A stretch of 64,000 nucleotides of DNA from Methanobacteriota archaeon (GTDB lineage Archaea; Thermoplasmatota; E2; DHVEG-1). Made by a program: the position numbers and the translations under genes. Where the stretch lies: the NCBI GenBank assembly GCA_903877165.1, contig CAIRCU010000032.1, positions 16,747 to 80,746 on the forward strand. Reading direction: 5' to 3'. The notes under the pieces are model-generated. The model was not told the DNA's origin. It ran no database searches and saw nothing but the letters and a program-made list of their open reading frames with translations. This document shows positions 1 through 56,250 of the stretch, in pieces (positions within the stretch are counted from its first letter, which is position 1; each line of letters opens with the position of its first letter).

Positions 1-1013
1 GCTGCCGCGGCAGCCGATGCACTCGTCGGTCTTGAACTCGCAGGTCCCGCAGTGTCCTTGGAGGTACTGCTCGGCGAATCGCGCTCGTTTCATGAACGGA
101 TGGTCCATGGCCTGCTTCAAGGTCAACGAACCTTTCACTGAGGGGCGGACGTTGACGAAGTCGATGAGGACTGCGGCGCACGGCCGGGCATAGCCTTCGA
201 CTGTGATGCACATGCTGTATTCGAGCTGTCGGCATCCCGCGCCGACCAGGGGCGTGTGCACGTTCCAGTTCAACTTGTATTCTTTGTGGTCGATCTCGAG
301 GAGTTGGGCTTTGACTTCTTCGACTTCGGGGCCGGGGAGGACCCAGTCGAGGTGTCGTTTGGCTCGCCCGCTGGGTGTCATGGTTTCCATGTTGGGGAAG
401 ATGTTGTTGTCGCGGCAGAATCGCCACATCGTTGGGATTTCCTCTCGGGTCAAACGATTCAAAACGAAGGATAACCCGAGGCGTACGGTCGGTCCTTTCG
501 TAAACCCAAGGTCCATGAGGTTCTTCAGACCCGTCTCGATGTTCTTGTACGCGCCTTTCTTTCCCGCCATGAGGTCCTGGGTCGCCTCCGTGATTGAATC
601 ATGTTTCAGGAGGATTGACGCGTTGTTTTTATAGAGGAATTCAGAAAGCTTGCGATCCATGTTCTGTCCGTTGGTGATGATGACGGGGATCATGCCGAGA
701 CCGTGGATGATTTCAACGAGTTCTTTGAAGCGGGGGTAGACGGTGGGTTCGCCGCCGCCGATGATGACGACGGAGCGTGCACCGAGGTCTTTGGCCTGGT
801 GGACGATGTTTACGAGCTCTTCGTAGGTCATCTCGTTGTCTTTGGGTTCGCCGCTTTCGCGGTAGCAGTACTCACAGCGCAGGTTGCACAGAAGGCTTGT
901 TTCCAGACGCAAGGCAAGCAGACGGTTGCTGTCCCGGGCCTGCCTGGCTTCTTTGTTGCTGTAGAGGTACCCTTCGAGGACGGGAGGGTGGTGATACTGG
1001 ACAGTGGGCATTA
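1..1013 (-). CDS. radical SAM / SPASM-domain enzyme, anSME/peptide-maturase-like (partial; C-terminus runs off the window start)
   Basis: Manual minus-strand translation from ATG at ~1011-1013 reads MPTVQYHHPPVLEGYLYS... CNLRCEYCY (CX3CX2C) ... VVIIGGGEPTVYP ... C-terminal Cys clusters CRQLEYSMC..RPCAAV and GHCGTCEFKTDECIGCRG (SPASM-like). No stop codon before the window edge. Absent from the ORF track only because no stop lies in the window. Confidence 0.7.
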
Positions 1014-1202
1014 CGAGAAAATAGGTGTTAACCTAGATATAGTTTTTCTATAACGGCTCTTATTATTTTTTTAGGGGTATTTAATTTACTGGTGGAAAGG
1101 CGCTGTCGGTTTCTCATTTTTTGTTGTTCGCGACGGTCGTACTGGAGGTCTCTTTGTTATTGCCTTTGATTTGTAATTGTTAAATATATTCTTTAGAATA
1201 CA

Positions 1203-1210
1203 TTTAAATA
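1203..1210 (+). promoter_or_regulatory. putative archaeal TATA box (tttaaata) upstream of the PQQ-repeat protein gene
   Basis: AT-rich intergenic 1014-1255. The tttaaata motif sits ~45 nt upstream of ATG 1256. Confidence 0.3.
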
Positions 1211-1255
1211 ACTTATAAGTGCTTCTATCATTTAGCTTTCAGGGGGACAATAACG

Positions 1256-3073
1256 ATGGAAGCAATAACACGAAGAAGCGTCTTCATCTATGGAATTGTA
1301 TTTCTTTTACTTGGTACAAGCATTCCTTTACAGGTTCGCAGTGGAATGACTGAGTCTATGATTCTTAGTCACTCTGGAGATGGGAATTATGACAATAATC
1401 ATTCTACAAGCGATATAGATTGGTGGCCGATGTTCGGTCACGATCTTGCTCGTAGTGGATATAGCACGTCGAAAGCACCAAACACAAAAGAGTTGTTATG
1501 GAAATTCGATGCAGGAAATCCAATTTATTCATCCCCAACGGTCGCGGATGGAAAAGTGTTCATCAGCTCTCATGGTGAACCTAAAATGTTTTGCTTAAAT
1601 GCGACCGACGGCATGAAGTTGTGGGAATTCGCAAGCTCTGAAGATATGAGTGCCGCTGCTATCATAAACGACAGAGTCTACTTTTGCTCTGACACTGGTT
1701 ACGCTTATTGCTTGAATGAAACTACTGGAACTATCATATGGTCTCTGTTAACTGATTCAACGACTCAGTTAACCTCATCGCCTGCGGTCATAGATGGAAA
1801 AGTTTACTTTGGTTCAAGTTACCATAAAATGTACTGCCTCAATGCTGATAACGGGACAGTCATCTGGATTTTCAATACAGGAACAAATGGTTACGTTGGC
1901 TCTTCACCCGCTGTTGTCAATAACAAGGTGTTTTTCGGATGTCAAAACAAGAAGATATACTGCCTGAACGCGACTACAGGTACACAGATCTGGAATTATA
2001 CAACTGGAAATGAAATAGACCTTTCCACTCCATGTATATGGAACGACAAACTTTACATAGCCTCAGAAGACAGCGACGTGTATTGTATAAATGTCTCCAC
2101 TGGCGAAAAAATTTGGAATTACTCGACAGGAGGAACCCTGGATTCATCTCCCGTTATCGCCTATGGAAATGTCTATATCGGCTCCTGGGACTGGAAATTC
2201 TATTGCTTAAATGCAACATCAGGCATAAAAAAATGGGATTATTACATCGGAGACGTGGTACTATCCGCTGCCGCCGTCGCCGACAATAAAGTATACGTTG
2301 GCGCCCATCATCAATTATTTTGTTTCAACGCAACGACCGGAGTCAAAATTTGGGAGTACGCAACAGGAAACTATGTGTATTCATCTCCCGCCATTGCCAA
2401 TCGCAAGGTCTACATTGGCTCTACCGACCATAAATTCTACTGTTTTCGAGATAACCACAATCCCAATGCACCAAATTCTGCCTATCCATCAAATGGATCA
2501 ACCGAAATACCGCTCAAAATAAACCTCAGCTGGGCTGGTGGTGACCCAGATATCGAAGATACTGTGACGTACGACGTTTATTTTGGGACAGCCACTCCTC
2601 CATTAAAAGTTGCAAGTAACCTTACAACAACTACGTTCAACCCAGGGCCGCTCTGGTACAATACAACGTATTTTTGGAAGATAATTGCCTGGGATAACCA
2701 TCATGCATCTACCTCTGGGCCGATCTGGAAATTTACTACGATCAAAGACGTTACACCGCCCAGTGTTGAAATTTCACAGCCGAAGACCGGTTATCTCTAT
2801 TACAATGACCAAGAGATCATGAAAAGAATCTTTTCAAAAAATACACTTATCATCGGGCCATTGAACATCACCGTCAATTCCACAGATAACCAGACGGGAG
2901 TCAACCGTGTCATGTTCTATATTGATGACCTCCTTAGCGCGAAAATTACCTCAACTCCCTATACCTGGCTTTGGTCCCAAAAAATGTTTTTCAAACATAA
3001 AATTACGATTATATCCTATGACAATGAAGGCAATAGTAACAAGGTTGAATTATCTGTAGTCAAATTTCTTTAA
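1256..3073 (+). CDS. secreted PQQ-like beta-propeller repeat protein with C-terminal fibronectin-III/Ig-like domains
   Basis: N-terminal hydrophobic signal/anchor. About 8 tandem blades with recurring YCLNATTG(T/V)xIW / SSPAV motifs. C-terminal FN3-like segment (TYDVYFGT...WKIIAWD). Coding GC (~42%) is far below the window average (~60%). Confidence 0.75.
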   Translation: MEAITRRSVFIYGIVFLLLGTSIPLQVRSGMTESMILSHSGDGNYDNNHSTSDIDWWPMFGHDLARSGYSTSKAPNTKELLWKFDAGNPIYSSPTVADGKVFISSHGEPKMFCLNATDGMKLWEFASSEDMSAAAIINDRVYFCSDTGYAYCLNETTGTIIWSLLTDSTTQLTSSPAVIDGKVYFGSSYHKMYCLNADNGTVIWIFNTGTNGYVGSSPAVVNNKVFFGCQNKKIYCLNATTGTQIWNYTTGNEIDLSTPCIWNDKLYIASEDSDVYCINVSTGEKIWNYSTGGTLDSSPVIAYGNVYIGSWDWKFYCLNATSGIKKWDYYIGDVVLSAAAVADNKVYVGAHHQLFCFNATTGVKIWEYATGNYVYSSPAIANRKVYIGSTDHKFYCFRDNHNPNAPNSAYPSNGSTEIPLKINLSWAGGDPDIEDTVTYDVYFGTATPPLKVASNLTTTTFNPGPLWYNTTYFWKIIAWDNHHASTSGPIWKFTTIKDVTPPSVEISQPKTGYLYYNDQEIMKRIFSKNTLIIGPLNITVNSTDNQTGVNRVMFYIDDLLSAKITSTPYTWLWSQKMFFKHKITIISYDNEGNSNKVELSVVKFL

Positions 3074-3122
3074 ATCGAACTACACTGTAAAATAAAAAAT
3101 AGTAATCTTCAGAATTGCGACG

Positions 3123-3210
3123 GGAGAAAAAAACCGATAGAACCTACCTTTCTTGCCCTATTAACTGCAATCCCTTCGAGAATCGAGAAAGAGCTCGTTG
3201 AGAGATGAAC
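3123..3210. repeat. imperfect direct repeat copy 1 (~75% identical to 5226..5309); contains a degenerate tRNA-Pro 3'-end-like segment (gagctcgttgagagatgaac)
   Basis: Manual alignment. gagaaaa..cgatagaacc.ac.ttt..ccctattaac..aatccct...gagaa...cgttgaga.tgaac is shared with the region immediately 3' of and overlapping the tRNA-Pro gene. Confidence 0.5.
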
Positions 3211-3295
3211 AATGCTAAAAATGAGGGAGTCTGGTTGAACGGGATTGGTGCCACGAACATCCTGTCTTTGTCAAGGATGAAGACGGAGGACTTTC

Positions 3296-4174
3296 TCAAT
3301 GTTTCGGTTTCACAGCTACAACGGTTCCGAAATGAATGATTTTCGCTAATCCGAGCATGTCGCCGATGACGACGGCCCCCATGTAGAAATAATCATCATT
3401 TTCCGGTCTGTATTTTTTCCCAAGCAAGAGTCGTTTTATCACGGAAGCGGTGAAAAAGTACGGACCCAGGCACGTTGATCGTGCGACCGATGGTAGGATT
3501 GTCTTCGTCAGGTCTTCTACGACGACGTCTTCGAACCCATTTTTTTCAAGCAAGGTCTTGAGGTCTTTCAGGCTGATGAGGTCTGGGAATCCTCTGGCTG
3601 GACGCCAAATGTCGAGGACTTTGCGGCTCAATGATGTGAGCGGTTCATCCCGGATGAACCCGTCAAGGATGACAAACCGGCCGCCAGGCTTAATGACTCG
3701 ATACATTTCCCGAATCATCTCTTCCTTGTTCTGGGCGTAGTTATGGGACTCTTGGGCAAAGGCGCCGTCAAAATAGTTATCAGGAAACTCCGTGTGACGA
3801 TAATTCTGCAGCAGGAATTGTGTATTGTTTGTGACTCCTTCTCGTCTCGCTAACTCCTGGGCGAGCGGAATCTGATTTCGCGTAATGGTGATGCCGATGA
3901 AGGTGCTCTTTGGGAAGAGCTTCGCCAGCTGCGTCGAGGGCCCGCCGACCCCGCAGCCCGCATCGAGAATCACCCAGGATTTATCCTCAGAGATTCCTAG
4001 CAATTTACCGGCATAGTAATTCATGTAGTGCAGCGATTCGTCGAAGGAATGAACTCCTTTAACATGCATGCCGAAGTGGATAGCATGCGCATCATCGCCC
4101 TGCCACCACTTGACGAAATGCGGCCAATGACGTTCGTAGAAATCTTCTACCCCGGATTCAGGATTGTCTCCCAT
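3296..4174 (-). CDS. class I SAM-dependent methyltransferase (gamma-tocopherol/MPBQ/sterol-MT-like)
   Basis: VILDAGCGVGGPSTQLA motif I. N-terminal FYERHW...W..H.G and C-terminal IKPGGRFVILD segments are typical of the gamma-TMT / Methyltransf_11 group. Confidence 0.7.
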   Translation of the reverse strand: MGDNPESGVEDFYERHWPHFVKWWQGDDAHAIHFGMHVKGVHSFDESLHYMNYYAGKLLGISEDKSWVILDAGCGVGGPSTQLAKLFPKSTFIGITITRNQIPLAQELARREGVTNNTQFLLQNYRHTEFPDNYFDGAFAQESHNYAQNKEEMIREMYRVIKPGGRFVILDGFIRDEPLTSLSRKVLDIWRPARGFPDLISLKDLKTLLEKNGFEDVVVEDLTKTILPSVARSTCLGPYFFTASVIKRLLLGKKYRPENDDYFYMGAVVIGDMLGLAKIIHFGTVVAVKPKH

Positions 4175-4185
4175 GGTTTCACCGT

Positions 4186-5103
4186 TTACAAGATACTTGC
4201 CACCACTAAACTGATGATGAAGAGATAATTGTGGAGCGCTGCAATAAGCAGCGTGAGTTTGGACGTCCGAAGAAAGAGAGTCGTATCATTATAATTTTTT
4301 AATGCGTTGACGACAGAGACCACCGCCAAGGGAACCGTGATGAAAACGACCGCGCTCCAAACGGGGATTAGCTTGCTGTATAAAAGGATCGCGTCGCTGA
4401 CGAAGATAAGAACAAGCATGACGCCATACGCCACGACCGTCCTCTTCTTCCCTAATACGATGACCAGATTGTTTTTCTTCACTTTCTTATCCGCGTCGTA
4501 ATCCGGTATGGAAAGGATCATCCCGACGATCAATCCAATGAACGTAAAGGGAATCGCAAAGAGCATGATGGCTGGATCCAGAACACGCGTCTGCACAAAA
4601 TAGGCTCCAAAGAGCATGACGGGTCCATAGCCAATGGCTTGCGCGATTTCGCCAAAACCTCGATAGCATAACTTCACCGGAGGCGCTGTATAGAAAAAGA
4701 CAAGGAAAAAACCAAGAAGGCCCAAGAGAAGAATTGTGACGCCATCGAGAACGAAGTTCAAGTACAATCCTATGATGGAAGCGAACACTAACAAGGCGAT
4801 GGAGACACGAAAAATCGTTTTCTCTGCAATTAGCCCTTCTTGAATGACCCGGCTTCCCCCGGAAAACGGTGTCGTCACCGGATTGAGGTCATCAGCCTTT
4901 AACACATGGTCGTAGTAATCATTCAATAAATCCGTGCTGACCAAGACGGCAGTCATCGCAATCCACGTTAACAAAAACAACCACCAATTAAAGACGCGAT
5001 GCGTGTAAAACGCAAACGCTGTGGCAACAAAAATCGGCGACGACCCCGAGATCACCATATGGAAGCGCGTTGCCCGAAACCATAATCTCAAGCCCATTGC
5101 CAA
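4186..5103 (-). CDS. UbiA-superfamily aromatic prenyltransferase (MenA-like; NDYYD motif)
   Basis: Polytopic membrane protein. Asp-rich motif LNDYYDHVLKADDLN. Second motif IPDYDADKK...IVLGKK. Confidence 0.75.
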   Translation of the reverse strand: MAMGLRLWFRATRFHMVISGSSPIFVATAFAFYTHRVFNWWLFLLTWIAMTAVLVSTDLLNDYYDHVLKADDLNPVTTPFSGGSRVIQEGLIAEKTIFRVSIALLVFASIIGLYLNFVLDGVTILLLGLLGFFLVFFYTAPPVKLCYRGFGEIAQAIGYGPVMLFGAYFVQTRVLDPAIMLFAIPFTFIGLIVGMILSIPDYDADKKVKKNNLVIVLGKKRTVVAYGVMLVLIFVSDAILLYSKLIPVWSAVVFITVPLAVVSVVNALKNYNDTTLFLRTSKLTLLIAALHNYLFIISLVVASIL

Positions 5104-5225
5104 AAAAATAACGTGAAATGAGTTATATAGCTTATTTAAATTGGAGAAAAAAGGAACCCTAGCCTTATATGATGTTCTTTAGGCATGCTCCTTAAAACCA
5201 GGCCATCTAGCAGGACAGTGAGGTC

Positions 5226-5309
5226 AGGAGAAAATCGATAGAACCCACTTTTTACCCTATTAACCGAAATCCCTCCTATAACGGAGAATGGGCCCGTTGA
5301 GATTTGAAC
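5226..5309. repeat. imperfect direct repeat copy 2 (overlaps the 3' end and downstream flank of tRNA-Pro)
   Basis: See 3123..3210. Shared segment aggagaaaatcgatagaacccactttttaccctattaaccgaaatccct...gagaatgggcccgttgagatttgaac. Confidence 0.5.
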
Positions 5310-5361
5310 TCAAGTCACTTGCACCCCAAGCAAGAAGGATACCAAGCTACCCCACGGGCCC
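5289..5361 (-). tRNA. tRNA-Pro (anticodon GGG)
   Basis: Reverse complement GGGCCCGTGGGGTAGCTTGGTATCCTTCTTGCTTGGGGTGCAAGTGACTTGAGTTCAAATCTCAACGGGCCCA. 7-bp acceptor stem, anticodon stem CTTGC/GCAAG with loop TTGGGGT (U33, G37), T-loop TTCAAAT, no encoded CCA. Confidence 0.85.
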
Positions 5362-5435
5362 AGGGGATACCGGGTGCTAAGGGTGCATGCTGACAAGCCT
5401 TAATATAGTTTATTCGATTCAACTCCCCTGGTACC

Positions 5436-5720
5436 ATGAACATCGACGTCATCACGCTCCTCGGCGTGGCTGCCGGCGCCGTCACCTCCATCGGCTTCAT
5501 CCCGCAACTGCTGAAAGGCTACCGCACGAAACGCCTCACTGACGTCTCGTACGGCATGCCACTGTTCCTCACGTTCGGTATGAGCCTCTGGCTCGCCTAC
5601 GGACTCTTCCGTAACGACCTCGCGATCATCCTTGCGAATGCCTTCGGCGTCAGCTGCAATCTGCTCCTCGTCATACTGAAACACCGGTACACATCCAACG
5701 ATAAAACTGACAATTCTTAA
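5436..5720 (+). CDS. SemiSWEET / PQ-loop (MtN3-like) small membrane transporter
   Basis: 94 aa with three TM helices. PQ motif GFIPQLLKGYRTK after TM1. Confidence 0.55.
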   Translation: MNIDVITLLGVAAGAVTSIGFIPQLLKGYRTKRLTDVSYGMPLFLTFGMSLWLAYGLFRNDLAIILANAFGVSCNLLLVILKHRYTSNDKTDNS

Positions 5721-5795
5721 ATACTAGGGTCCCGCATATCTCCACAGAAACGCTGTACGAGACCTAAAATCGACTCACGTAATGAAGCGGCAACC

Positions 5796-6425
5796 ATGAA
5801 TGAGAATCCACCTGCGGCCCGCCGGAAAACAACCATGGCGGTCATCCTCATCAAGCTCATCTCCAACACCTTCTGGGAGATAGCGGACTACTTCTCCTAC
5901 AGAAGTAAAAGCGCAGCCCGGCTCTACGACACCATGATCGGTGGCGAGTACCAAGAGGAGTACGAACATTGCGGCGTCGCCAGTGCCAAGAACATCCTAC
6001 ACATCGGCTCCGGTGCATACCCGCTTACCGAGATGGCGCTCGCCGCGGTCAGCAACGGCCAGGTCGTCGGCATCGACAAGAAACCCGCGACCGTCGCCAA
6101 AGGCACCAAAGTCATCCAACGCCGCGGCCTCTCCAACCATATCACCATCCAGCATGGCGACGGCAGAAACTATCCCGTCTCCAAGTACGATACGATTATC
6201 GTCTCCAGCTGCAGCATCCCAAAGATTCCAATCCTAGAACACCTCGCCAAAGCCGCGCAACCCAAGACGCACATCATCGTCCGGGAAGTCGACATCGCCT
6301 GCCCCTACATCGAAGACTTCCTCGCCTCTCACCCGAACATGGTGATCTCCGACCGGATCCGACACAACCCCTTCCCATTCATCTACCCCATCGGTTGGAT
6401 GACATTCCGGATTCAGAAACAATAA
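5796..6425 (+). CDS. putative SAM-dependent methyltransferase-like Rossmann-fold protein (paralog of 10923..11576)
   Basis: ILHIGSGAYPLTE (Gly-rich motif I), VVGIDKK (acidic post-I), IQHGDGRNYP, DTIIVSS. Motif-for-motif match with 10923..11576. Directly upstream of a UbiA gene. Confidence 0.45.
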   Translation: MNENPPAARRKTTMAVILIKLISNTFWEIADYFSYRSKSAARLYDTMIGGEYQEEYEHCGVASAKNILHIGSGAYPLTEMALAAVSNGQVVGIDKKPATVAKGTKVIQRRGLSNHITIQHGDGRNYPVSKYDTIIVSSCSIPKIPILEHLAKAAQPKTHIIVREVDIACPYIEDFLASHPNMVISDRIRHNPFPFIYPIGWMTFRIQKQ

Positions 6426-6466
6426 GATTATTAAGACCTCTAGGTTGTTTTTCCCCCTAACTACCC

Positions 6467-7480
6467 ATGACCCAAGAGCCCACCCGACCACGCTTCTTCC
6501 ACAATCCCTTACATTTCCTGGTGACCTGGAGATCGTTTCCCGTCTATGAGCTCCTCGGCTATATCTTCATGTTTTCAGCTTCTATCATGTTTGCGTTCGG
6601 CATCCATCGCTACGCCACACAGGACTACATCGTTATCATCCTTTCCGTGGCGACTATGTACTGCGGGTTCTTCGCCGCACTCATCTGGAATGATATCACG
6701 GATCAGGATATTGACACCGTCGTTCACCCGACGCGCCCCATCCCAGGCCGGCGTATTTCTCCCAAGACGTTCTTCGGGATAGCTTTGGTGTTCTCCGCCT
6801 TGACCTTCCTCTTCGCACTTATTCTCAGTCCATGGTGCTTCATTTTGGTGGGCGCCGCTGCGTTGTTCACCGCGGTCCATAACCGCTACTTGAAGAGACT
6901 CATCAAACTCCCGGCGTACTCCGAGATCTTCACCCCGGTGCAATGGCTGGTCGTCCCCCTGTTCGGGTTCTTCGTCGTCTGGACGGTTCTGCCACACTCC
7001 GCTGACATGTTCTTCACCCTGCCCTTGCTCGGCACGCTCTCCATAGCGAAGGCGGATCTGCTACCGATGGCGCTGCTGGTGCTGTTCACATATTTCGCGG
7101 ATGATGCACATGATGTCGCGGAAGGCATCCGTGACATGGAAGGCGACCGCATCTTAGGCGTGAAAACCTATGCCATTTCGTTTGGGCCACGGACCGCGGC
7201 CGCCGTGTCCTTCAGCATGGTCGTTCTCGCCGGCATCCTCGGCATCCTCCTGTACTATTTCACGCTCCTCTCAGAGGTCTTCCTCATCCCGTTCCTCATC
7301 TTCTGGGCGTACACCCTCATCTTTTTCTATCAACTCCTGAGAACAAAGGATCTGATACAACAAAAGAAGCTTGGGCGGATGGTCGGTCGAAAAGGCTACA
7401 ATTTCCTGTTGTTCTCTTACATCTTGATGTTCATCGATCTCGCTCTGCAGCTGACGCTGGCACTGTCTCGGTCCTGCTAG
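6467..7480 (+). CDS. UbiA-family prenyltransferase
   Basis: NDITDQDIDTVVHPTRPIPGRRISPK first Asp-rich motif. DDAHDVAEGIRDMEGD second motif. About 8 TM helices. Confidence 0.75.
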   Translation: MTQEPTRPRFFHNPLHFLVTWRSFPVYELLGYIFMFSASIMFAFGIHRYATQDYIVIILSVATMYCGFFAALIWNDITDQDIDTVVHPTRPIPGRRISPKTFFGIALVFSALTFLFALILSPWCFILVGAAALFTAVHNRYLKRLIKLPAYSEIFTPVQWLVVPLFGFFVVWTVLPHSADMFFTLPLLGTLSIAKADLLPMALLVLFTYFADDAHDVAEGIRDMEGDRILGVKTYAISFGPRTAAAVSFSMVVLAGILGILLYYFTLLSEVFLIPFLIFWAYTLIFFYQLLRTKDLIQQKKLGRMVGRKGYNFLLFSYILMFIDLALQLTLALSRSC

Positions 7481-8403
7481 TGCTGCGGAGATAAGAGTCT
7501 GACGAGGAGGGCCATCTGCGCCCACAGCCGGTTCTCTGCTTCATCAATGATGACGGACTGAGGGCCGTACGCGACGTCTTTGGTGACTTCTTCGCCGTAA
7601 CAGATGGGCATGCAATGCATGAAAATTGCATCCGGCTTCGCCTTCTTCATGGTCTCCTGAGTGATGGTATAGTTCTTGAAAGCCTTGAGTCGTTCTCGGC
7701 GCTCGTTTTCGTACCAGAGAGAAATCCAGGTGTCGGTCGCGACAATGTCTGAGCCGGCGACCGCGGCAAGGTCCTCGGTAATGGTCACAGACCGTTTCTT
7801 TTTTGCAGCGACTTCCTTGGCCGTGCGGATATAGTAGTCCTGCGGCCAGTATTTCTTTGGTGAGATGACCGTGACGTCCATACCCACCATAGCGCAACCA
7901 AGCATGTAGGAATGGGTGAGGTTGTCATCTCCATCTCCGATGAACGTAAAATGCAGGCCTTGGAGTCGGCCCTTTTTTTCTTTGATGGTCTGGAGGTCTG
8001 CGAGGATCTGACAGGGATGTTCGAGTATGTCCAAACCGTTGATGACCGGAACAGTAGCGTAGGTCGCGAACTCCTGAAGGTTCTTCTCTTCTATGGCACG
8101 GTACATGATAATGTCGGCATAACGGGAAATGACCAAGGCGATATCCTGGGGGGATTCCCGGGTACCGGTGCCGACCTCTTCTTGTGAGAGGTAGACTGCA
8201 TGGCCGCCCAGCATGGTCATGCCGACTTCGAAGGAGACCCGGGTGCGCGTCGAGGCGCGCTCAAAAAGCATAGCGAGGGTTTTACCTGGGAGGTATTGGA
8301 TCGGTTTGCCTTCGTGCTTCTCTCGTTTCAGCTGGATAGCATGGTCGATGATGAATTCGATGTCGTCTTCGACATCGAGGATGGAGAGGATGTTTTTCTT
8401 CAT
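7477..8403 (-). CDS. ornithine-carbamoyltransferase-family transcarbamylase (SMG motif replaced by SLW)
   Basis: STRTRVSFEVGM carbamoyl-phosphate motif. HPCQILADL. FIGDGDDNLTHSYMLG. FMHCMP (HCLP-like). The ornithine-binding D-x-x-x-SMG position reads DTWISLW. Confidence 0.7.
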   Translation of the reverse strand: MKKNILSILDVEDDIEFIIDHAIQLKREKHEGKPIQYLPGKTLAMLFERASTRTRVSFEVGMTMLGGHAVYLSQEEVGTGTRESPQDIALVISRYADIIMYRAIEEKNLQEFATYATVPVINGLDILEHPCQILADLQTIKEKKGRLQGLHFTFIGDGDDNLTHSYMLGCAMVGMDVTVISPKKYWPQDYYIRTAKEVAAKKKRSVTITEDLAAVAGSDIVATDTWISLWYENERRERLKAFKNYTITQETMKKAKPDAIFMHCMPICYGEEVTKDVAYGPQSVIIDEAENRLWAQMALLVRLLSPQH

Positions 8404-8462
8404 GAAAACCCGGCTCCTTTGAAACCCCCTGATGTATATTAACGTTGTGAAGAACGTACCTC

Positions 8463-9779
8463 TTAGTCTTCAGGGAGGATGGTCTCGCGCGGGATCCTGG
8501 TAACGTCGAGAGATTGTCTTGTGTATGAGACTCGTGGGCGTGGCGCGAGCTGCAGGGTGGTTGAGGATTTTTTCTTCCGAGGATGGGATTCGATGTCGAT
8601 GGTGATCCCAAGGCCGTGTGGCGGTTTGAGGATGGTGAGATGGACTGCGGTGTGGCCATGGCTTGGGGAGTGGCGCAGCGGTACGTTCTTGCAGAGTCCT
8701 TGAAGCGCGGTAGTCTGGCCGTCGTCGGTGAAGGTGCCGTCGACGCGGCCGGGTAGTTCACAGAGGATGTAAGCGCGGAAAAATTTCTGTTGGGTCGGGA
8801 TGTCGATGTATTCGTAGCCGTCAGTGGTGGAGGTGAACCGTAACTTGATGGTCTTGTTGCCGAGTTTGCCGGTGACTTCCATGTCGCTGGGGTAGTAGAT
8901 GTCGTAGTCTTTGAGGTAGATGACTTTGGTGTATCTGAAGTGGACGTCGCAGAATTCCCAATATTTTTTCCCGTCTGGGGTGACGTAAAGGGTGCCGAAG
9001 GCTGGTCCGTCGTTGACCCATAGGAGGCTGTTGCCGAAGAAGAAGCTCCAGCCGTTGTCGCAGACGCCCCAGAGCCAGTCGTAGCCCAGCATATTGTTCT
9101 CGGTGGCGAAGCCGATACGGCTGGGGAGACGGTGGTGGTGCTGTGAGAACCACCAGTAGAAGAGGCGCAGGTACGTGTCCAGGGTCGTGCGCATGCCGCT
9201 CAGTCGTTGCAGGGGTTTTTCGTACGACCAGTTCCCGTACGCATGTTCGAGGTAGCCTTTGCCGTCCAGCGTGAAGGTCTTACCCTGCAGGGTCATGGTG
9301 CCGGTGAGGGCGCAGTGGGGGATGAACCCGTAGCGGTAGTGGTTGAGGCCGATGGGGAGGATGCCGTTGGTGGTCTCCTGGGTGATCCAGTGCGGGAGGG
9401 CCCGGGCGTCCATGTCGATGTCGGTGCTAAAGCCTTTGGCGTCGTCCTGGTGGTGGAGGTGGTACTTGGGGTACAGCCCCTGGAACGTGGTCTGCTTGTA
9501 TCGTAGGTCGATCCTGTTTTTCGTGGTGGTCAGTTCGCTAAGGTTGTCGTTGAGGTCCTTGTGTAGGACGCATTTTCCTGTGGTGAGGTCGATGAGGACG
9601 TATTGGAAGAAGCAGGAGGGCGGATCTTGGGTGACTGCGAACGATGTCATGAGGTTCCAGGTGTGCTGGTCATCGCGTGTGGTGAAGAAGAGTTCGGACG
9701 TCCACCATTCCTTCTTGATGGGGTGGTGGTCGCCTTCGTCTTGCGGCGTCCAGGGGTTCGCTGGTTCCATGGGTTCCAT
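8463..9779 (-). CDS. hypothetical protein, possibly CrtC/AttH-like (lipocalin-like hydratase fold)
   Basis: N-terminal KKEWWTSELFFTT segment resembles the EWWY motif region of the CrtC/AttH family and the REWWYFTAVF of 15702..17051. W/Y-rich beta-type composition. Lies between UbiA gene clusters. Confidence 0.35.
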   Translation of the reverse strand: MEPMEPANPWTPQDEGDHHPIKKEWWTSELFFTTRDDQHTWNLMTSFAVTQDPPSCFFQYVLIDLTTGKCVLHKDLNDNLSELTTTKNRIDLRYKQTTFQGLYPKYHLHHQDDAKGFSTDIDMDARALPHWITQETTNGILPIGLNHYRYGFIPHCALTGTMTLQGKTFTLDGKGYLEHAYGNWSYEKPLQRLSGMRTTLDTYLRLFYWWFSQHHHRLPSRIGFATENNMLGYDWLWGVCDNGWSFFFGNSLLWVNDGPAFGTLYVTPDGKKYWEFCDVHFRYTKVIYLKDYDIYYPSDMEVTGKLGNKTIKLRFTSTTDGYEYIDIPTQQKFFRAYILCELPGRVDGTFTDDGQTTALQGLCKNVPLRHSPSHGHTAVHLTILKPPHGLGITIDIESHPRKKKSSTTLQLAPRPRVSYTRQSLDVTRIPRETILPED

Positions 9780-9828
9780 AGGTGCCGGGCTCTCGTCCGC
9801 CTCGAAACGAGACGGTGAAATATAACCT

Positions 9829-10866
9829 TTGTCACTTGAAGGGAGGCTCTTAAGATTTATATGCGATTCACGAATTCGTAAGACCCTTGAGAGACGCGAG
9901 AGGATGACGATTTCTACGAAATTATTCGCTCATCTTGAGGCCATGCGGCCGTACACCCTGCTGTGGTGCGGTCTCGTCAGCCTCACAGGCGCAGTCCTCG
10001 CATCGCAGACGCTGCCTACTACGGCGGCCCTGATTTTCCTTGTCCCCATCCTCGGCTGGATCGCAGGGTTGTACCTCGCGGATTATTCCGACCGAAATTT
10101 GGACCGCATCCAAAAACCACACCGTCCGATCCCCTCCGGGCGCATCAAACCAAGCGAGGCGCTCCTCGTCGGCGCCGTCTTCGCCCTCGTAGGGCTTGCG
10201 CTCACCTTCATGCTCAGCCTGATAAACGTTCTGCTGACCTTCCTTGCCGCCGGCCTCGTCTACGTGTACGCCCGCTGGACGAAACCACGAGGCCTCCTGG
10301 GGAATCTGACGAGGGGGCTGCTGACCATGACGACGTTCCTCTTCGGCGTCGCCGCCGTCCACCCCGTGTCATCGTTGTCCCTTCCGATATGGATTGTCGC
10401 CGTGGTCTTCTTCATCCATGACACGAACAGCAACATCATCGGCGCCCTGAGGGACGTGACCGGAGACCAGGCCGCCGGTTGCACCACCACCCCGGTCCGC
10501 TACGGCATGCACATCGCGCTGCTCATCTCCCTGGGACTCACCCTCCTCTACCTCGGCATCACCATCACCCTCGTTGGCTCTAGCACCCTGCTCTCCTACC
10601 CCTCCTTGTTTTTTCTCATCCTAAGCCTGGGAATCGTTCTTCTCGGTATCATGTATGTCCTCCTCTTCCATTCGATCCACGCGCCATCCCAAGGACGAAT
10701 GCTACGTGCCCATGAGCTGTTCGTCGGCGAGCGCATCCTGTTCGCCTCCGCGTTCATCGTCGGATTCTTCGGTCTCACTGCATTCGCCGTCATCCTGACC
10801 GCATCCTGTCTGCTGCTCACCCTCCTGTCGCAGCACCTCTTGCGCAAACGCTACGAACTCACGTAA
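9829..10866 (+). CDS. UbiA-family prenyltransferase
   Basis: DYSDRNLDRIQKPHRPIPSGRIKP motif. Second motif HDTNSNIIGALRDVTGD. Polytopic membrane protein. Confidence 0.7.
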   Translation: MSLEGRLLRFICDSRIRKTLERRERMTISTKLFAHLEAMRPYTLLWCGLVSLTGAVLASQTLPTTAALIFLVPILGWIAGLYLADYSDRNLDRIQKPHRPIPSGRIKPSEALLVGAVFALVGLALTFMLSLINVLLTFLAAGLVYVYARWTKPRGLLGNLTRGLLTMTTFLFGVAAVHPVSSLSLPIWIVAVVFFIHDTNSNIIGALRDVTGDQAAGCTTTPVRYGMHIALLISLGLTLLYLGITITLVGSSTLLSYPSLFFLILSLGIVLLGIMYVLLFHSIHAPSQGRMLRAHELFVGERILFASAFIVGFFGLTAFAVILTASCLLLTLLSQHLLRKRYELT

Positions 10867-10922
10867 CCCCAGGGTGGAACCAGCACCTTTAAAGCACCCG
10901 TACCATATCTCAAGAGGGAATC

Positions 10923-11576
10923 ATGCCGTCCTCATTCATGACTCGCGTCTTCTCCCTTGCCCACCGGGTCGTCTTCCAAGAGGTCGGCAACAAGATTCCG
11001 ACGAACGCTCTGAAAACACTCATGGACCTCGGCTTCATTGTTTTTGAAAAAATGGGCGTCAAATTCCCTGCCATCTCCAACATATACCTGCGGTTCTACG
11101 AATCAGTCGTCCAACAAGAAGCGATGCTCGCCCAGGTCTCCAAAGGAGACAGCGTCCTCGTCATCGGCAGTGGCTCGCTGCCGGCGACGCCAATCCTCAT
11201 CGCGCGGTACACCGACGCCCACATCGTCTCCATCGACCGGGACCCCCAGGCCGTGAAAGCCAGCACCGAGTACATCCGCCGCATCCACCTCGACGACCGA
11301 CTCACCATCGCCTACGGCGAAGGACTCACCTACCCCGCCAAGGACTTCTCCGCCGTCTTCATCCTCTACGGTGTCAAGAACACACAAGCGGTCTTGGCCT
11401 CACTCCCCGACAGGATCTCGGACCATTGTCGCGTGATTCTGCGTCTCATGAGCGATAAGAACCACCAACTCCTCGACGACCTCGACATCACCAGCTACTT
11501 CACCATTAAAAAACAGGTGCACACGACCGTGCTTGGTTCGTTCGAAGCACTCCTACTTGAGAAAAAAACAACCTAG
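10923..11576 (+). CDS. putative SAM-dependent methyltransferase-like Rossmann-fold protein (paralog of 5796..6425)
   Basis: VLVIGSGSLPATP, IVSIDRDP, IAYGEGLTYP, SAVFIL. Adjacent to a UbiA gene. Confidence 0.45.
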   Translation: MPSSFMTRVFSLAHRVVFQEVGNKIPTNALKTLMDLGFIVFEKMGVKFPAISNIYLRFYESVVQQEAMLAQVSKGDSVLVIGSGSLPATPILIARYTDAHIVSIDRDPQAVKASTEYIRRIHLDDRLTIAYGEGLTYPAKDFSAVFILYGVKNTQAVLASLPDRISDHCRVILRLMSDKNHQLLDDLDITSYFTIKKQVHTTVLGSFEALLLEKKTT

Positions 11577-15701: not shown

Positions 15702-17051
15702 GTGTACAGGAAGATATTAATAAAGAGAAAGCGGAATAAAAACCTAAGTCAACTGGTGAGAACCTTCATGCCTCGTAGATTGCGGACGATTGACGTGTGT
15801 ATCGTCGTTGGTTTATTGGTCGTTTCGACCGGTTTCCTCTACAAGGCAGAGTATCTTGCTCCTCTTTTCCCCACGTCTTCTCCACCAGTGACACCAGTTG
15901 ATACGAACACAACGTCTCCTGTGGTTGTGCCACCGACCTCCCTAGTCCCGTCGGTTCGTCGGGATGTTTCCGGGGATGATGAAGGTATGCATTTCGATAG
16001 CCTGCGCGTCTCGCGGGAATGGTGGTATTTCACCGCAGTGTTCAACGGTTCGAGTAACAATCTTGGTGAGTGGGCTGCTGCGATTGCGTTCGCCCATCTT
16101 GCGCCCGGGGATCTCCTGGGGACCGCGAAGCCCGACCTCCTGGTCGTCAGTCTTCTTGATTCGTCTGGTGCGCAGTACGGCGGCATGGTCAACAAACGGC
16201 ATTACCTAGGGATTCTGAAGAGCGGTACGCTCGTGGCGAGCACTCCTGGTGTGAAACTCAGCTATGATTCGTCTTGGGTGGAGGGCACGGCACCCTCGTG
16301 GCATGTGCACGCGGAGGATGCGGAGATCGACACGGCGCACACTGTGGTCATCGATCTGGATTATCATGCACAGGCGCTTCCGTTGTGGACGCTTGGGACG
16401 AAGGCGTTCGAACTTTCGAACAGCACACTAGCAAGTTATGTGTTCCTTGACTGTGAGATCTCCGGGACGGTGTCGATCGACGGCGTCGTTCATCAGGTCT
16501 CGGGTGTGGGCACGTATGAGCATACGTGGTCGCCGCGCGCCGTGACCCGAGCGGAGATCAACGGCTGGGACTGGTTCAGCATCAAGCTTGATAACGGCTG
16601 GATGGTCTATGCCTCGAACTATCTGCCGACGCCGCAGGCGCTGACTGAGAAAATCTCGGCGCTTCCTTCGTTTGGTACAATCGTCATCACCACGGATCAT
16701 GGGGAGACGTGCACGGAGCTGAAGAACCTGAATGTCAAGGTCACGACGCAGGATGAGAAGGTGTTCCCCTTGGTGAAGATGCCGTCTGCGTTTGATCTGG
16801 ATGCGTCGCCGAGCCTCAATCCGACGTACCTGGTGAGTCAGTCGCTGCTTCTCGGTACGGATTTGTCGTTGACGGCGAACGGCTCTGTTGTGAATTCGGT
16901 GGATAAGATTTGGAACTTCCCGACGTACGTGGGTATGAAGCTTGGGTACGTGGACATTAGCGGGGAGTTGTCGTGGTCTGATGCGACCGGCGAGCATGCT
17001 GTCCCCTTCAGCGGGATCGGCGTCTCGTGGAGCATGCGGGCGCTACTGTAA
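15702..17051 (+). CDS. membrane-anchored extracellular protein, CrtC/AttH-like domain with Thr/Pro-rich linker
   Basis: N-terminal TM helix. PVTPVDTNTTSPVVVPPTS linker. REWWYFTAVF motif and beta-rich body. Weak resemblance to 8463..9779. Confidence 0.35.
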   Translation: MYRKILIKRKRNKNLSQLVRTFMPRRLRTIDVCIVVGLLVVSTGFLYKAEYLAPLFPTSSPPVTPVDTNTTSPVVVPPTSLVPSVRRDVSGDDEGMHFDSLRVSREWWYFTAVFNGSSNNLGEWAAAIAFAHLAPGDLLGTAKPDLLVVSLLDSSGAQYGGMVNKRHYLGILKSGTLVASTPGVKLSYDSSWVEGTAPSWHVHAEDAEIDTAHTVVIDLDYHAQALPLWTLGTKAFELSNSTLASYVFLDCEISGTVSIDGVVHQVSGVGTYEHTWSPRAVTRAEINGWDWFSIKLDNGWMVYASNYLPTPQALTEKISALPSFGTIVITTDHGETCTELKNLNVKVTTQDEKVFPLVKMPSAFDLDASPSLNPTYLVSQSLLLGTDLSLTANGSVVNSVDKIWNFPTYVGMKLGYVDISGELSWSDATGEHAVPFSGIGVSWSMRALL

Positions 17052-52734: not shown

Positions 52735-55092
52735 GTGGGGAAGAAGATGAGAGCCACAAGATTTGTTTGGAAAGCAGCCGTTCTTGGAAGCGTCTTTCTT
52801 TGTTTAAGCAGCTGTTTTGCACCGGTACTTGCCCAATCACCACAATCACCCAGCACGGATCATCCAGTATTGTCAGGAGGAAACTCTGAAAAAACCGCTC
52901 AGGTGACCTGCTATGTCATCAGTTCGCAAGGAGTGAAACAACAACAAACATCGACACTCTCTAGAACTGATGCCGAATGGCTAATGGCAAAGCTTAAGAC
53001 ACTGCGCGCTGCGACATCCGGAAGTCCTTCAAACCCGATCTCCCTGCAGAACGAGGTTCTTTCGTTTGCTGAAACGCATCACCTCCTCCCGCAAGGCGTC
53101 TCTGCAGCTTCTCTATCCGCACAATTAGCGACCACACCAGAATTTGCTCGAAAACACCTTATCTTCCCAGCGAGCTTTGGGAGCACCTCGGAATGGGTCT
53201 GCAACTTCGCGACCACGGGCGAAGGATCCGCTAAGCCTATCATCATTCTCCCAAGATTAATCCCCATTCTTCTCATCCCGATTCCACGTGCGTTCGTATC
53301 CTGGTCAACCCCGGATGGGATCACTTCGGTCGGTGGGCTCATTTCTCACACAGGGTTCATCGCCTACGGAGTGCAAAAAGGGATCGCCTTGGGGTTCTGG
53401 GGTATCGGGTTCAGCATCTTCCTACCTCCAGTTGATGCCTACGGGATTTTCGGGTACGCTCTGTTCGCAAAAGTGACCGCTCAGTATTATGAGTTCTACC
53501 CGCCGAATAACCCACCGGAGATTACACAGACTGACCCCGCTGATGGCCAGCAAATGGTGCCTATGACGACGACGAAACTGCAGTTTAGCATCTCTGATTA
53601 TGATGGGGATCTCATGAGTTTCAACGTCACCACCAGCCCGGACATCGGTTCTGGGAGTGGTGGGTTAAAGCCTGGTGGCGTCTATTCCATCCCGGTCCAA
53701 GGCCTCCAAGACCTCACGCGATACACCTGGCGAATAACCGTGACCGATGGGAAAGACACGGTGAGTAAGACTCAATCCTTCATCACTGAACCAGTAGCTC
53801 CCATTATTTCGAACGTCCTCCCTGAGGATAATGACAACGCAGTCCCTGTGGACCTCTCGCAGCTGCAATTCTACCTGAAAGACTATCAAGGGGATGCGAT
53901 GAGCTATACGGTGATGACGTCTCCTGACATTGGATCTGGCTCTGGGACTAACATCCATGATGGTACGGTGACCATCCCGGTGCATGGCCTCACCATGGCT
54001 TCAGCCTATCGATGGTATGTAAATGTCACCGACGGGACGCATTGGAATCGTAAGGTTTTCAGGTTCCAGACCTCTTATCCTGAACAGTTCAATCCGTTTG
54101 ACTACGGCTGGCACTACAGAAAGACGCTGACGATTAATCATGAGCTGGTCGATGAGAGCCTCAGTAACTTCCCTGTGCTCGTGAGCATCACTGACAATGA
54201 TTTAAAACAGAAGGCGCAGACGGACGGCAGTGATATTTTATTTATGAACGCAACAGGCGTCTCCCACAAATCATATTTCGAAATCGAGACATATCAGGGG
54301 TCGACAGGCACGCTGACCGCATGGGTCAACATACCAACTGTTTCACCAGATGCCGATGTCACGTTCTATATGTACTACGGCAATCCCGATGCCCTCACCA
54401 TTGAGGAGAAAGAAAAGACGTGGGATAATAATTACCTGGTTGTTCAACACATGCATCAGGATTCGGCAGCGAACTTCAAGGACTCCACGCATTATCACAA
54501 CGACATTATTTCTCAGACCGGGAGTCCCTCGTATCAGCAAATAGGGAAAATTGGGTATTGCGTTGGTTTTCACGGGTCAGACGCCCTTTCCTTCGCCTCG
54601 TCGATCTATAATATAGCCCCTGCGACCGTTGAGGTCTGGGGAAAGACAGAGACGACCTCGTCGGATCAGTACCTGTTCTGTGATGGTGGTGAAACCAGTC
54701 GCTCCTATGGGTTCTATTGGTATATCCAAGGCGGCCAATTTGGCACCACGATGATGAACCTGCCGAAATGGGTCGGTCAAGATGGCATCGCGACTGCCGT
54801 GCCTGGCCAATGGTATTTCTGCGCGAGCACCTGGGACGGCACGGACTCCGATGGTCATTTCGTGATTAACGACCAGGTCTTTACGAAAACTAGCGGCATC
54901 GACAATCGGAATGAGCCCGCCAATAATGCGAAGATCGGGCAATGTTCTGAAGGTCAGTACGGGTTCCATGGTCTCATCGATGAAGTCCGATTGTCCAAAG
55001 TCGCCCGAGACGTGGGATGGCTGACCACCGAGTATACCAACTCTATCAACCCCACGGCCTTTGTCGTGGTCGGAGCAGAAGAGGGGCCTTAA
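52735..55092 (+). CDS. large secreted protein with two tandem Ig/FN3-like repeats, a DUF2341-like domain and a C-terminal LamG/concanavalin-like domain
   Basis: Signal peptide. Repeats FSISDYDGDLMSFNVTTSPDIGSGSGG... and FYLKDYQGDAMSYTVMTSPDIGSGSGT.... GWHYRKTLTINHELV...FPVLVSITD...YMYYGNPDA (DUF2341 pattern). WYFCASTWDG...IDEVRLSKVARDVGWLTTEYTN (LamG-type). Confidence 0.55.
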   Translation: MGKKMRATRFVWKAAVLGSVFLCLSSCFAPVLAQSPQSPSTDHPVLSGGNSEKTAQVTCYVISSQGVKQQQTSTLSRTDAEWLMAKLKTLRAATSGSPSNPISLQNEVLSFAETHHLLPQGVSAASLSAQLATTPEFARKHLIFPASFGSTSEWVCNFATTGEGSAKPIIILPRLIPILLIPIPRAFVSWSTPDGITSVGGLISHTGFIAYGVQKGIALGFWGIGFSIFLPPVDAYGIFGYALFAKVTAQYYEFYPPNNPPEITQTDPADGQQMVPMTTTKLQFSISDYDGDLMSFNVTTSPDIGSGSGGLKPGGVYSIPVQGLQDLTRYTWRITVTDGKDTVSKTQSFITEPVAPIISNVLPEDNDNAVPVDLSQLQFYLKDYQGDAMSYTVMTSPDIGSGSGTNIHDGTVTIPVHGLTMASAYRWYVNVTDGTHWNRKVFRFQTSYPEQFNPFDYGWHYRKTLTINHELVDESLSNFPVLVSITDNDLKQKAQTDGSDILFMNATGVSHKSYFEIETYQGSTGTLTAWVNIPTVSPDADVTFYMYYGNPDALTIEEKEKTWDNNYLVVQHMHQDSAANFKDSTHYHNDIISQTGSPSYQQIGKIGYCVGFHGSDALSFASSIYNIAPATVEVWGKTETTSSDQYLFCDGGETSRSYGFYWYIQGGQFGTTMMNLPKWVGQDGIATAVPGQWYFCASTWDGTDSDGHFVINDQVFTKTSGIDNRNEPANNAKIGQCSEGQYGFHGLIDEVRLSKVARDVGWLTTEYTNSINPTAFVVVGAEEGP

Positions 55093-56176: not shown

Positions 56177-56250
56177 TGGGCCCGGCAGGATTTGAACCTG
56201 CGACCAACTGGTTATGAGCCAGTCGCTCCACCGGTCTAAGCTACGGGCCC
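56177..56250 (-). tRNA. tRNA with CAT anticodon (elongator Met or Ile2)
   Basis: Reverse complement GGGCCCGTAGCTTAGACCGGTGGAGCGACTGGCTCATAACCAGTTGGTCGCAGGTTCAAATCCTGCCGGGCCCA. Anticodon stem ACTGG/CCAGT with loop CTCATAA. T-stem GCAGG/CCTGC. G1:C72 excludes an archaeal initiator. Confidence 0.85.

Follow-up and report, generated by a model that had tools for sequence, protein, structure and literature searches.

Positions 3123-5309 of the 64-kb stretch of DNA analysed here (contig CAIRCU010000032.1 of a Methanobacteriota archaeon; the whole stretch is called the window below) are most probably a 2.1-kb integrase-less cassette of two genes, inserted at the 3' end of a tRNA-Pro(GGG) gene by Campbell-type recombination. 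We give this reading a probability of about 0.75. The intact tRNA gene together with a decayed copy of its 3' end is the ordinary scar of an insertion into a tRNA gene, and what is unusual is that the cassette carries no integrase and that it recurs at tRNA-Pro in distant relatives. Of the features that mark insertions of this type, a direct repeat of the tRNA 3' end, empty sites in relatives and a foreign signature were found, whereas an integrase and exact attachment-site (att) cores were not. In the direction of the tRNA, the locus reads tRNA, trailer, UbiA1, MT1, spacer, tRNA-like segment, second trailer, 3' end of a PQQ-repeat gene and a radical-SAM gene. The parts of the cassette and its borders, all on the minus strand, are as follows.

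5288-5362, minus strand: intact tRNA-Pro(GGG) gene, the probable integration target (ARAGORN; Rfam RF00005 at 5289-5361, 55 bits).
5226-5287, minus strand: trailer part of copy 2 of the repeat ("E-flank"), about 60 nt with an oligo-T end, the probable left arm of the cassette by attL.
4186-5103, minus strand: UbiA1, first cargo gene (Pfam PF01040, E 2e-25).
3296-4174, minus strand: MT1, second cargo gene (Pfam Methyltransf_31/11/25 and Ubie_methyltran, E 7e-12).
3211-3295, minus strand: probable right arm of the cassette, an 85-nt spacer that separates the tRNA-like fragment from the stop codon of MT1.
3190-3210, minus strand: decayed 3'-end fragment of tRNA-Pro, from T-loop to discriminator (copy 1, attR-like junction; from alignments).
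3123-3189, minus strand: copy 1, trailer part ("E-flank prime"), with seven consecutive T at its end (from alignments).

The two copies of the repeat were aligned by blastn inside the window over 81 columns (3130-3210 against 5231-5309; 77.8% identity, 2 gaps, E 1.4e-12), and a repeat search returned an ungapped 61-nt pair at 77% identity (3150-3210 and 5249-5309). Their Smith-Waterman score of 73 was reached by none of 1000 dinucleotide shuffles (16.5±2.3, maximum 30). Copy 2 comprises 21-22 nt of the tRNA gene (5288-5309, T-loop position 53/54 to the 3' end) followed by about 60 nt of 3' trailer (5226/5231-5287), and the similarity has its upstream limit in the T-loop of tRNA-Pro. The tRNA-like part of copy 1 (3190-3210) is identical to 5289-5309 at 16 of 21 bases; taken alone, this match is no better than that of the unrelated tRNA-Met 3' end (74%), which, with the AT-rich composition of the region, is what could be said for a similarity by chance or low complexity. 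However, the trailer part of copy 1 without the tRNA piece (3100-3189) still scores 54 against 16.1±2.3 for shuffles, and the trailer core motif GGGATTNCNGTTAATAGGG occurs in the window only at 3156-3174 and 5255-5273, with 0.01 matches expected. The blastn result, the shuffle test, the significance of the trailer and the uniqueness of the motif together confirm the repeat, and a chance origin is refuted. Thus, the imperfect direct repeats of about 85 bp and 75% identity described in an earlier reading of the letters without database searches (the sequence-only reading) are real and lie well above background, and its identification of copy 2 with the 3' end and downstream flank of the intact tRNA (overlap 5288-5309), and of the end of copy 1 with a degenerate tRNA 3' end, stands as well. 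The att cores are neither exact nor near-exact, and the identities of the tRNA part and of the whole repeat (78%) fit an attR that is old and has decayed but are incompatible with a recent event.

The homologous cassettes of the relatives L049 and L065 (loci numbered with L) are insertions. About 20 Thermoplasmata metagenome-assembled genomes (MAGs) share a conserved block of tRNA-Pro(GGG), SemiSWEET, MT2, UbiA2, ornithine carbamoyltransferase (OTCase), a 438-aa protein and UbiA3, with a convergent tRNA-Lys(CTT) a few kb from tRNA-Pro, and the DNA 3' of tRNA-Pro varies from genome to genome. In L001/L048 and L049, tRNA-Pro is followed immediately on its 3' side by trailer, UbiA1 and MT1. The two segments that flank the cassette in L049 (9000-9826 and 11851-12657) are contiguous in L025 (7402-6575 and 6573-5756; flank DNA identity 88% and 83%), and the 2,024-nt insert in L049 starts exactly at the tRNA 3' end and consists of trailer, UbiA1, MT1 and a decayed tRNA 3' fragment. 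The empty arrangement of L025 is also present in L011, L020 and L037. In L065, positions 272-2592 (trailer, UbiA1, MT1 and ATCTCAACGGGCTCA) replace 94 nt of L066 between the tRNA-Pro half and the same downstream genes. The tRNA fragment at the right end of the L065 cassette, ATCTCAACGGGCTCA, matches the tRNA 3' end at 14 of 15 positions, and the corresponding fragments are more decayed in L049 and L070. For the window itself the comparison is with L003, the closest genome available, whose tRNA-Pro is identical to that of the window and is directly followed on its 3' side by a VTT-domain gene, with no cassette, PQQ or radical-SAM gene there.

The cassette is also more conserved than its surroundings. 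Between the window and L049, protein identity is 82% for UbiA1 and 89% for MT1, as against 64% for SemiSWEET, 49% for MT2, 50% for UbiA2 and 66% for OTCase, with the 438-aa protein and UbiA3 within this core range of 49-66%. Between the window and L001, UbiA1 is 94% identical whereas UbiA2, MT2 and SemiSWEET are 73-78% identical, and the corresponding DNA identities are 90% and 75%. The base composition of the locus involves three further genes, which flank the cassette.

1-1011, minus strand: radical-SAM gene, running off the window.
1256-3073, plus strand: gene of a secreted PQQ-repeat beta-propeller protein of 605 aa, convergent with MT1 (Pfam PQQ_2, Beta-prop_ACSF4 and Big_7).
5436-5720, plus strand: SemiSWEET (PQ-loop) gene, the first core gene on the 5' side of the tRNA and the edge of the variable region (Pfam and synteny).

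The GC content is about 40% over 1050-3300, about 48% over 3300-5300 and 54-60% on either side, climbing to 54-59% from SemiSWEET onward. The low-GC tract therefore begins at the tRNA 3' end and stretches leftward to about 1050, up to the start of the radical-SAM gene; copy 1 divides it into two parts of different composition. The cassette has 49% GC in a 56%-GC genome, and the PQQ gene with 42% is the lowest segment. The core genes of the window have their best matches in Thermoplasmata or Thermoplasmatota MAGs. The L049 and L065 contigs have about 41% GC, near that of the cassette, which fits a donor lineage of low GC and a recipient, the lineage of the window, of 56% GC. Occupied and empty sites, excess conservation, low GC and, in a relative, an element with an integrase at this tRNA (see below) support what the sequence-only reading suggested, namely that the repeats were left by integration or recombination at a tRNA gene. 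Three points lie beyond that reading: the leftward reach of the low-GC tract with its PQQ gene, the role of the trailer as a component of the mobile cassette in other genomes, and the finding that copy 1 was not recently copied from copy 2.

The bracketed DNA holds only MT1 and UbiA1 by their Pfam methyltransferase and UbiA domains; here Pfam and tblastn agree with the original description of two genes and no integrase. The best NCBIfam matches of UbiA1, which starts with an ATG at 5097 and has 303 aa in public gene calls, are MenA models, although below their cut-offs, and the protein may be described as a MenA-like (1,4-dihydroxy-2-naphthoate polyprenyltransferase-like) prenyltransferase of the UbiA family. 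MT1 is a class-I S-adenosylmethionine (SAM) methyltransferase with a weak resemblance to UbiE/MenG (all NCBIfam matches sub-threshold), and in relatives it is always paired with UbiA1. From this family resemblance, the two proteins could act in the prenylation and methylation of a quinone. A conserved TATATAAC box near the start of UbiA1 is, judging from the alignment, likely to be the promoter of the cassette.

The core block of the window contains further genes of both kinds, namely UbiA genes at 6467-7480 and 9829-10866 and a methyltransferase gene at 5796-6425. Their presence close by, and the two direct copies of an 81-nt segment 2.1 kb apart, would be expected if the tRNA 3' end, trailer and genes had been duplicated in tandem in situ by unequal crossing-over, with the second gene set later deleted or replaced by the PQQ gene. 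However, no second copy of UbiA1 or MT1 was found in the window, UbiA1, UbiA2 and UbiA3 as well as MT1 and MT2 are at most 25% identical, and cassette-versus-core E-values are non-significant. Since the core copies also belong to a conserved synteny block, a recent local duplication is rejected, and the suggestion that a segmental duplication had seeded paralogous methyltransferase-UbiA pairs at this locus has to be dropped: UbiA2, UbiA3 and MT2 are members of that block, which more than 20 Thermoplasmata genomes share. It would be wrong to take these "paralogue pairs" for a gene family that expanded locally. An in-situ tandem duplication is further at odds with the cassettes of L049 and L065, which are insertions that end in a tRNA fragment and have unduplicated flanks, and with the foreign GC content and excess conservation of the cassette.

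The trailers speak against it as well. The trailer of copy 2 is 89-95% identical to that of L001, about 76-82% to that of L065 and, over the aligned part, 87% to that of L049, and a trailer is present in L070. It also precedes UbiA1 in L062-64, where no tRNA is nearby (score 44 against 15.3±2.3), which indicates that the trailer belongs to the unit that moves and is more than a native sequence following the tRNA. The trailer of copy 1 scores 54 with copy 2, 43 with L065, 39 with L001 and 27 with L008 (nulls about 15-16±2.3), and its identity is 79% to copy 2, 74% to L001 and 73% to L065. Its divergence from copy 2 is thus about that of the L065 trailer (76%), so that copy 2 is no closer to it than are trailers from other genera (73-76%), and at several differing sites it shares its states with L065, L049 or L008 and not with copy 2 and L001. 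Both the divergence and the shared states show that copy 1 did not arise recently in situ from copy 2 and is an independently diverged member of the trailer family. For these reasons we regard the tandem duplication as distinctly unlikely. When the trailer of copy 1 was compared with the native trailer of L003, only the first 6 nt (TTCTCG) matched, and the remainder was not significant.

A different account would have copy 1 retained for a function, be it that of a small RNA or that of an element which terminates or insulates transcription where the MT1 and PQQ genes converge, with the likeness of the two copies reflecting this shared function. Both copies end in an oligo-T run on the strand of the tRNA and MT1, six sequences retain a short hairpin immediately behind the tRNA end, with changes in some of its pairs, and in copy 1 the trailer part (79%) is better conserved than the tRNA part (67%). 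Nevertheless, the trailers fold no more stably than shuffles (z -0.5 to +1.1; alifold consensus energy -1.8 kcal/mol), the only Rfam match there is the tRNA itself, and the motif occurs nowhere else in the window. On these grounds the trailer was rejected as a structured RNA or Rfam family. A terminator role would also leave unexplained both the tRNA-like segment and the position of such segments at the cassette border in other genomes, and we consider a functional origin of the likeness very improbable. Its oligo-T end does suggest that the trailer could supply a terminator to the tRNA gene rebuilt by an insertion.

The right arm of the window (3211-3295) has only a weak similarity to the right arm of L065 (score 22, reached by 3% of shuffles), and this link is no more than suggestive. 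The right arm shows no similarity to the 5' part of the tRNA. A longer pseudo-tRNA upstream of the fragments, hinted at by a gapped MAFFT alignment, was rejected, because the scores of the 5' 55 nt of the tRNA against 3211-3296 and L065 2307-2498 were equalled by 34% and 82% of shuffles, respectively. Copy 1 is best read as an attR-like junction containing the displaced tRNA 3' end, and copy 2 as the attL-like junction that rebuilt the tRNA.

The repeat could also have been made elsewhere and have reached this genome when tRNA-Pro, cassette and copy 1 were imported as one block from a relative by a double crossover in flanking homology. In line with this, DNA identity between the window and L001 is 90% from UbiA1 through the tRNA and 50 nt beyond, compared with 75% in the adjacent core, and the tRNA fragments of the window and L065 carry the same C-to-T change (GGGCTC / GAGCTC). 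However, the tRNA and its promoter are conserved in L003 too, which makes the extent of the block uninformative, and the DNA following the fragment is wholly different, a cassette-type trailer in the window and a TGAATCA-type flank in L065 and L049. Such different sequences after the fragment fit independent insertions into different recipients. A block transfer would in any case still need an original integration event to create the repeat, and we judge it unlikely.

That tRNA-Pro serves as an integration site in this clade is seen in L066 (JGI 3300027896, Ga0209777_10003630), where 5.8 kb of DNA with 30% GC lies between the complete tRNA-Pro gene (15822-15895) and a second, 46-nt copy of the 3' half of that gene (9990-10035). 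The element carries genes of Macro-domain and DUF488 proteins and, at its far end, a frameshifted tyrosine integrase gene (9990-10933; PF00589 score of 32.5 bits after frame correction). Since this integrase gene overlaps the half-repeat of the tRNA, tRNA-Pro is a working integration site in the clade. The integrase has its first ~14 codons antisense to the 3' half of tRNA-Pro in L065, L066 and L067, and the att site overlaps the 5' end of the int gene. Homologues of the integrase were found in L065 (1-264), L067 (665-1607, frameshifted) and L018 (16029-16751, apparently intact), the latter with a PF16795 score of 17.7 bits, below the cut-off. A second integrase-less insertion with a single cargo gene at tRNA-Pro is present in L032 (1507-4281), where a 33-34-nt tRNA-Pro 3' fragment (88%) and the intact tRNA bracket the gene of a 780-aa secreted protein of internally duplicated sequence.

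The order in L065 is integrase N-terminus, tRNA-Pro 3' half, trailer, UbiA1, MT1, about 190 nt, ATCTCAACGGGCTCA and the TGAATCA-type flank, and the genes after this flank are those that directly follow the tRNA half in L066. This order indicates that the cassette was inserted first and that the integrase element entered later between cassette and tRNA, that is, accretion at one site. L070 starts with 13 nt matching the right arm of L065, followed by a 15-nt tRNA 3' fragment, trailer and cassette; over the left 30 nt, 25 positions agree with the right junction of L065 (score 35 against 12.4±1.7). The order right arm, fragment, trailer in L070 is the architecture of copy 1 in the window, and the junction pattern can be written as right arm, TCTCAACGGGCCCA, trailer, as exemplified by TAGAACNCNGTANNTCTCAACGGGCCCAC followed by the GGGATYYCRGTYAATAG motif. 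An integrase N-terminus and tRNA half directly upstream of the cassette are present in the relative L065, the left junction of L070 is suggestive of the same, and none was seen in the window.

In the insertion that we favour, a circular DNA would have recombined in the Campbell manner with the 3' end of tRNA-Pro(GGG), most likely through a tyrosine integrase acting in trans, or alternatively by homologous Campbell-type insertion of the circle. The incoming circle would have brought its own tRNA segment from T-loop to 3' end and the trailer of about 60 nt. After insertion, this segment would have rebuilt a functional tRNA (copy 2), and the old tRNA 3' end with the DNA following it would have been displaced beyond the cargo, where it now appears to be decaying (copy 1). 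The second, diverged trailer after the displaced fragment (3123-3189) may be either the left arm of an older element of the same family, of which perhaps the PQQ gene is also left, or the native trailer of the recipient, which would already have been of this type.

Several observations weigh against an insertion of this kind. No integrase or integrase remnant was detected in or near the cassette or elsewhere in the window, in agreement with the sequence-only reading: tblastn with the tRNA-Pro integrase of the clade matched only the 14-15 codons encoded by the tRNA itself, neither copy has integrase similarity beside it that would represent int(N) or int(C) halves, and copy 1, read in the integrase frame, meets a stop after 10 codons. 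No circular, viral or plasmid form of the cassette was found, and a viral contig collection gave no match for UbiA1, the integrase N-terminus, the tRNA 3' half or the trailer motif. The repeats are only 78% identical and their similarity extends about 60 nt past the tRNA, both of which are atypical of a fresh att pair. No empty site of the same genus was found; four near-identical strains (ERZ14268xx contigs, compared by gene maps) all have the same, occupied arrangement, so that the insertion status of the window rests on homology with L049 and L065. The cassettes of L061, L068 and L069 have other surroundings, in which no tRNA fragment could be detected, and the cassette may have been inherited vertically in some lineages. 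Finally, L008 has a cassette-type trailer beside tRNA-Pro and no cassette, so that the trailer could be native in some lineages.

A more far-reaching proposal, which we put forward only tentatively and hold to be less probable than not, is that the unit of trailer, MenA-like and UbiE-like genes is a non-autonomous integrative cassette with its own attP, made up of the tRNA-Pro segment from T-loop to 3' end and an arm of about 60 nt, an archaeal counterpart of the cis-mobilisable elements (CIMEs) of bacteria, which has moved between Thermoplasmata genera. SSV-like integrases with specificity for tRNA-Pro, encoded elsewhere on further elements, would have moved it, acting in trans or through accretion and co-excision, and a quinone-modification module would have spread horizontally in this way. 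Copy 1 would then be an internal attP-like junction of a degenerate tandem array of cassettes.

The structure of the window works like the known relics of gene capture at archaeal tRNA genes, and the cassette is, by this analogy, a probable further case. As summarised in PMC8371274, which cites She et al. (2001, Nature 409:478) and She, Chen & Chen (2004), archaeal gene capture leaves integrated elements between a tRNA gene and a partial repeat of the tRNA. Here, too, foreign genes lie between a complete tRNA gene and, downstream, a direct repeat of the 3' part of that gene, the cargo is fixed for want of a working integrase, and insertions pile up at the site. In contrast to those relics, the cassette of the window has no int(N) or int(C) halves and only two metabolic genes, its repeat includes about 60 nt of trailer outside the tRNA, and it is hosted by mesophilic uncultured Thermoplasmata, not by Sulfolobales or Thermococcales. 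SSV-type ("suicidal") tyrosine integrases of archaea have their att site inside the int gene (PMC8371274; PMC7253208). The att site at the 5' end of int in L065, L066 and L067 resembles this arrangement, a likeness of layout rather than an assignment to the SSV family; unlike in SSV-type systems, the integrase is not in the window and the att site lies at the extreme 5' end of int. The repeat of the clade integrase starts at the anticodon loop (46 nt), whereas the tRNA fragments of the cassettes start in the T-loop (about 15-21 nt).

In bacteria, CIMEs are derived by deletion from integrative and conjugative elements (ICEs) and accrete with ICEs in Streptococcus thermophilus, where their mobilisation has been shown experimentally. 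The cassette is similar in being flanked by att sites, lacking recombination and transfer genes, using the same site as integrase-bearing elements and showing signs of tandem accretion, with an integrase element beside the cassette in L065 and a junction of right arm, fragment and trailer in L070 and the window. It differs in that its att copies are decayed and that it is known here from sequence, whereas CIME mobilisation was observed. Williams is said to have distinguished, in 2002, sublocation classes of att sites in tRNA genes, reportedly with a T-loop type among them. As in T-loop-type islands, the boundary of the cassette lies in the T-loop, the repeat runs through the tRNA 3' end and the insertion is 3' of the tRNA; in contrast to them, the cassette is very small, has no integrase and shares homology that runs into the trailer.

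These results document tRNA-Pro(GGG) as a recurrent hot spot of integration in an uncultured clade of Thermoplasmata. They provide a concrete case in which a small module of prenyltransferase and methyltransferase, probably acting on a quinone or a similar aromatic substrate, has spread between genera and become fixed without an integrase. If the cassette can indeed be mobilised in trans, non-autonomous integrative elements with CIME-like accretion would extend to archaea. A further outcome is an integrase family, not characterised before, in which the 5' end of the gene overlaps the att site in tRNA-Pro. For annotation, the genes at 1256-5103 are better treated as acquired DNA.

The PQQ gene, distal to copy 1, may have come as cargo with an earlier insertion at this tRNA gene. 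No third copy of the repeat was found at the left edge of the low-GC region (1012-1255), where the best match was a 9-mer whose score was equalled by 12-80% of shuffles. The PQQ protein has no homologue above about 50% identity outside its own cluster and is uninformative as a marker of the state before insertion. Independently of its origin, this protein with its Big_7 domain looks like a fast-evolving or recently acquired surface protein.

The conserved block on the other side of the tRNA (5796-10866 in the window, also present in L003-L037) encodes a NAS/CntL-like methyltransferase, a UbiA protein, ornithine carbamoyltransferase, the 438-aa protein, which has no Pfam family, and a GGGP-synthase-like UbiA protein. 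In several genomes, a radical-SAM gene lies between the core methyltransferase and UbiA genes of this block. The interval between tRNA-Lys(CTT) and tRNA-Pro contains a conserved set of four small genes in several genera (L003 3910-5255; L065 2610-3748; L066 8739-9875), which code for a membrane protein of about 70-107 aa, a DUF5678 protein, a 133-aa aspartic-protease-like protein and a basic protein of 61-71 aa; they may be core genes or the remnant of an ancient mobile element.

In L001, a 7,560-nt insertion (2121-9693, corresponding to 5400-5412 of the window) separates SemiSWEET from the tRNA-Pro promoter and is flanked by an exact 13-nt direct repeat, TAAACTATATTAA, which is a TATA-like box and occurs once in the window. 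The insertion contains the gene of a 1147-aa protein and several small open reading frames, none with a Pfam family.

Elsewhere in the window, a methyltransferase gene of 42% GC (55116-56075) lies directly 3' of tRNA-Met(CAT) (56177-56250) and adjoins the gene of a 785-aa secreted protein (52735-55092, 51% GC). No repeat of the tRNA-Met 3' end was found beside this second low-GC patch, which, by its composition and position, may be another acquired patch associated with a tRNA gene.

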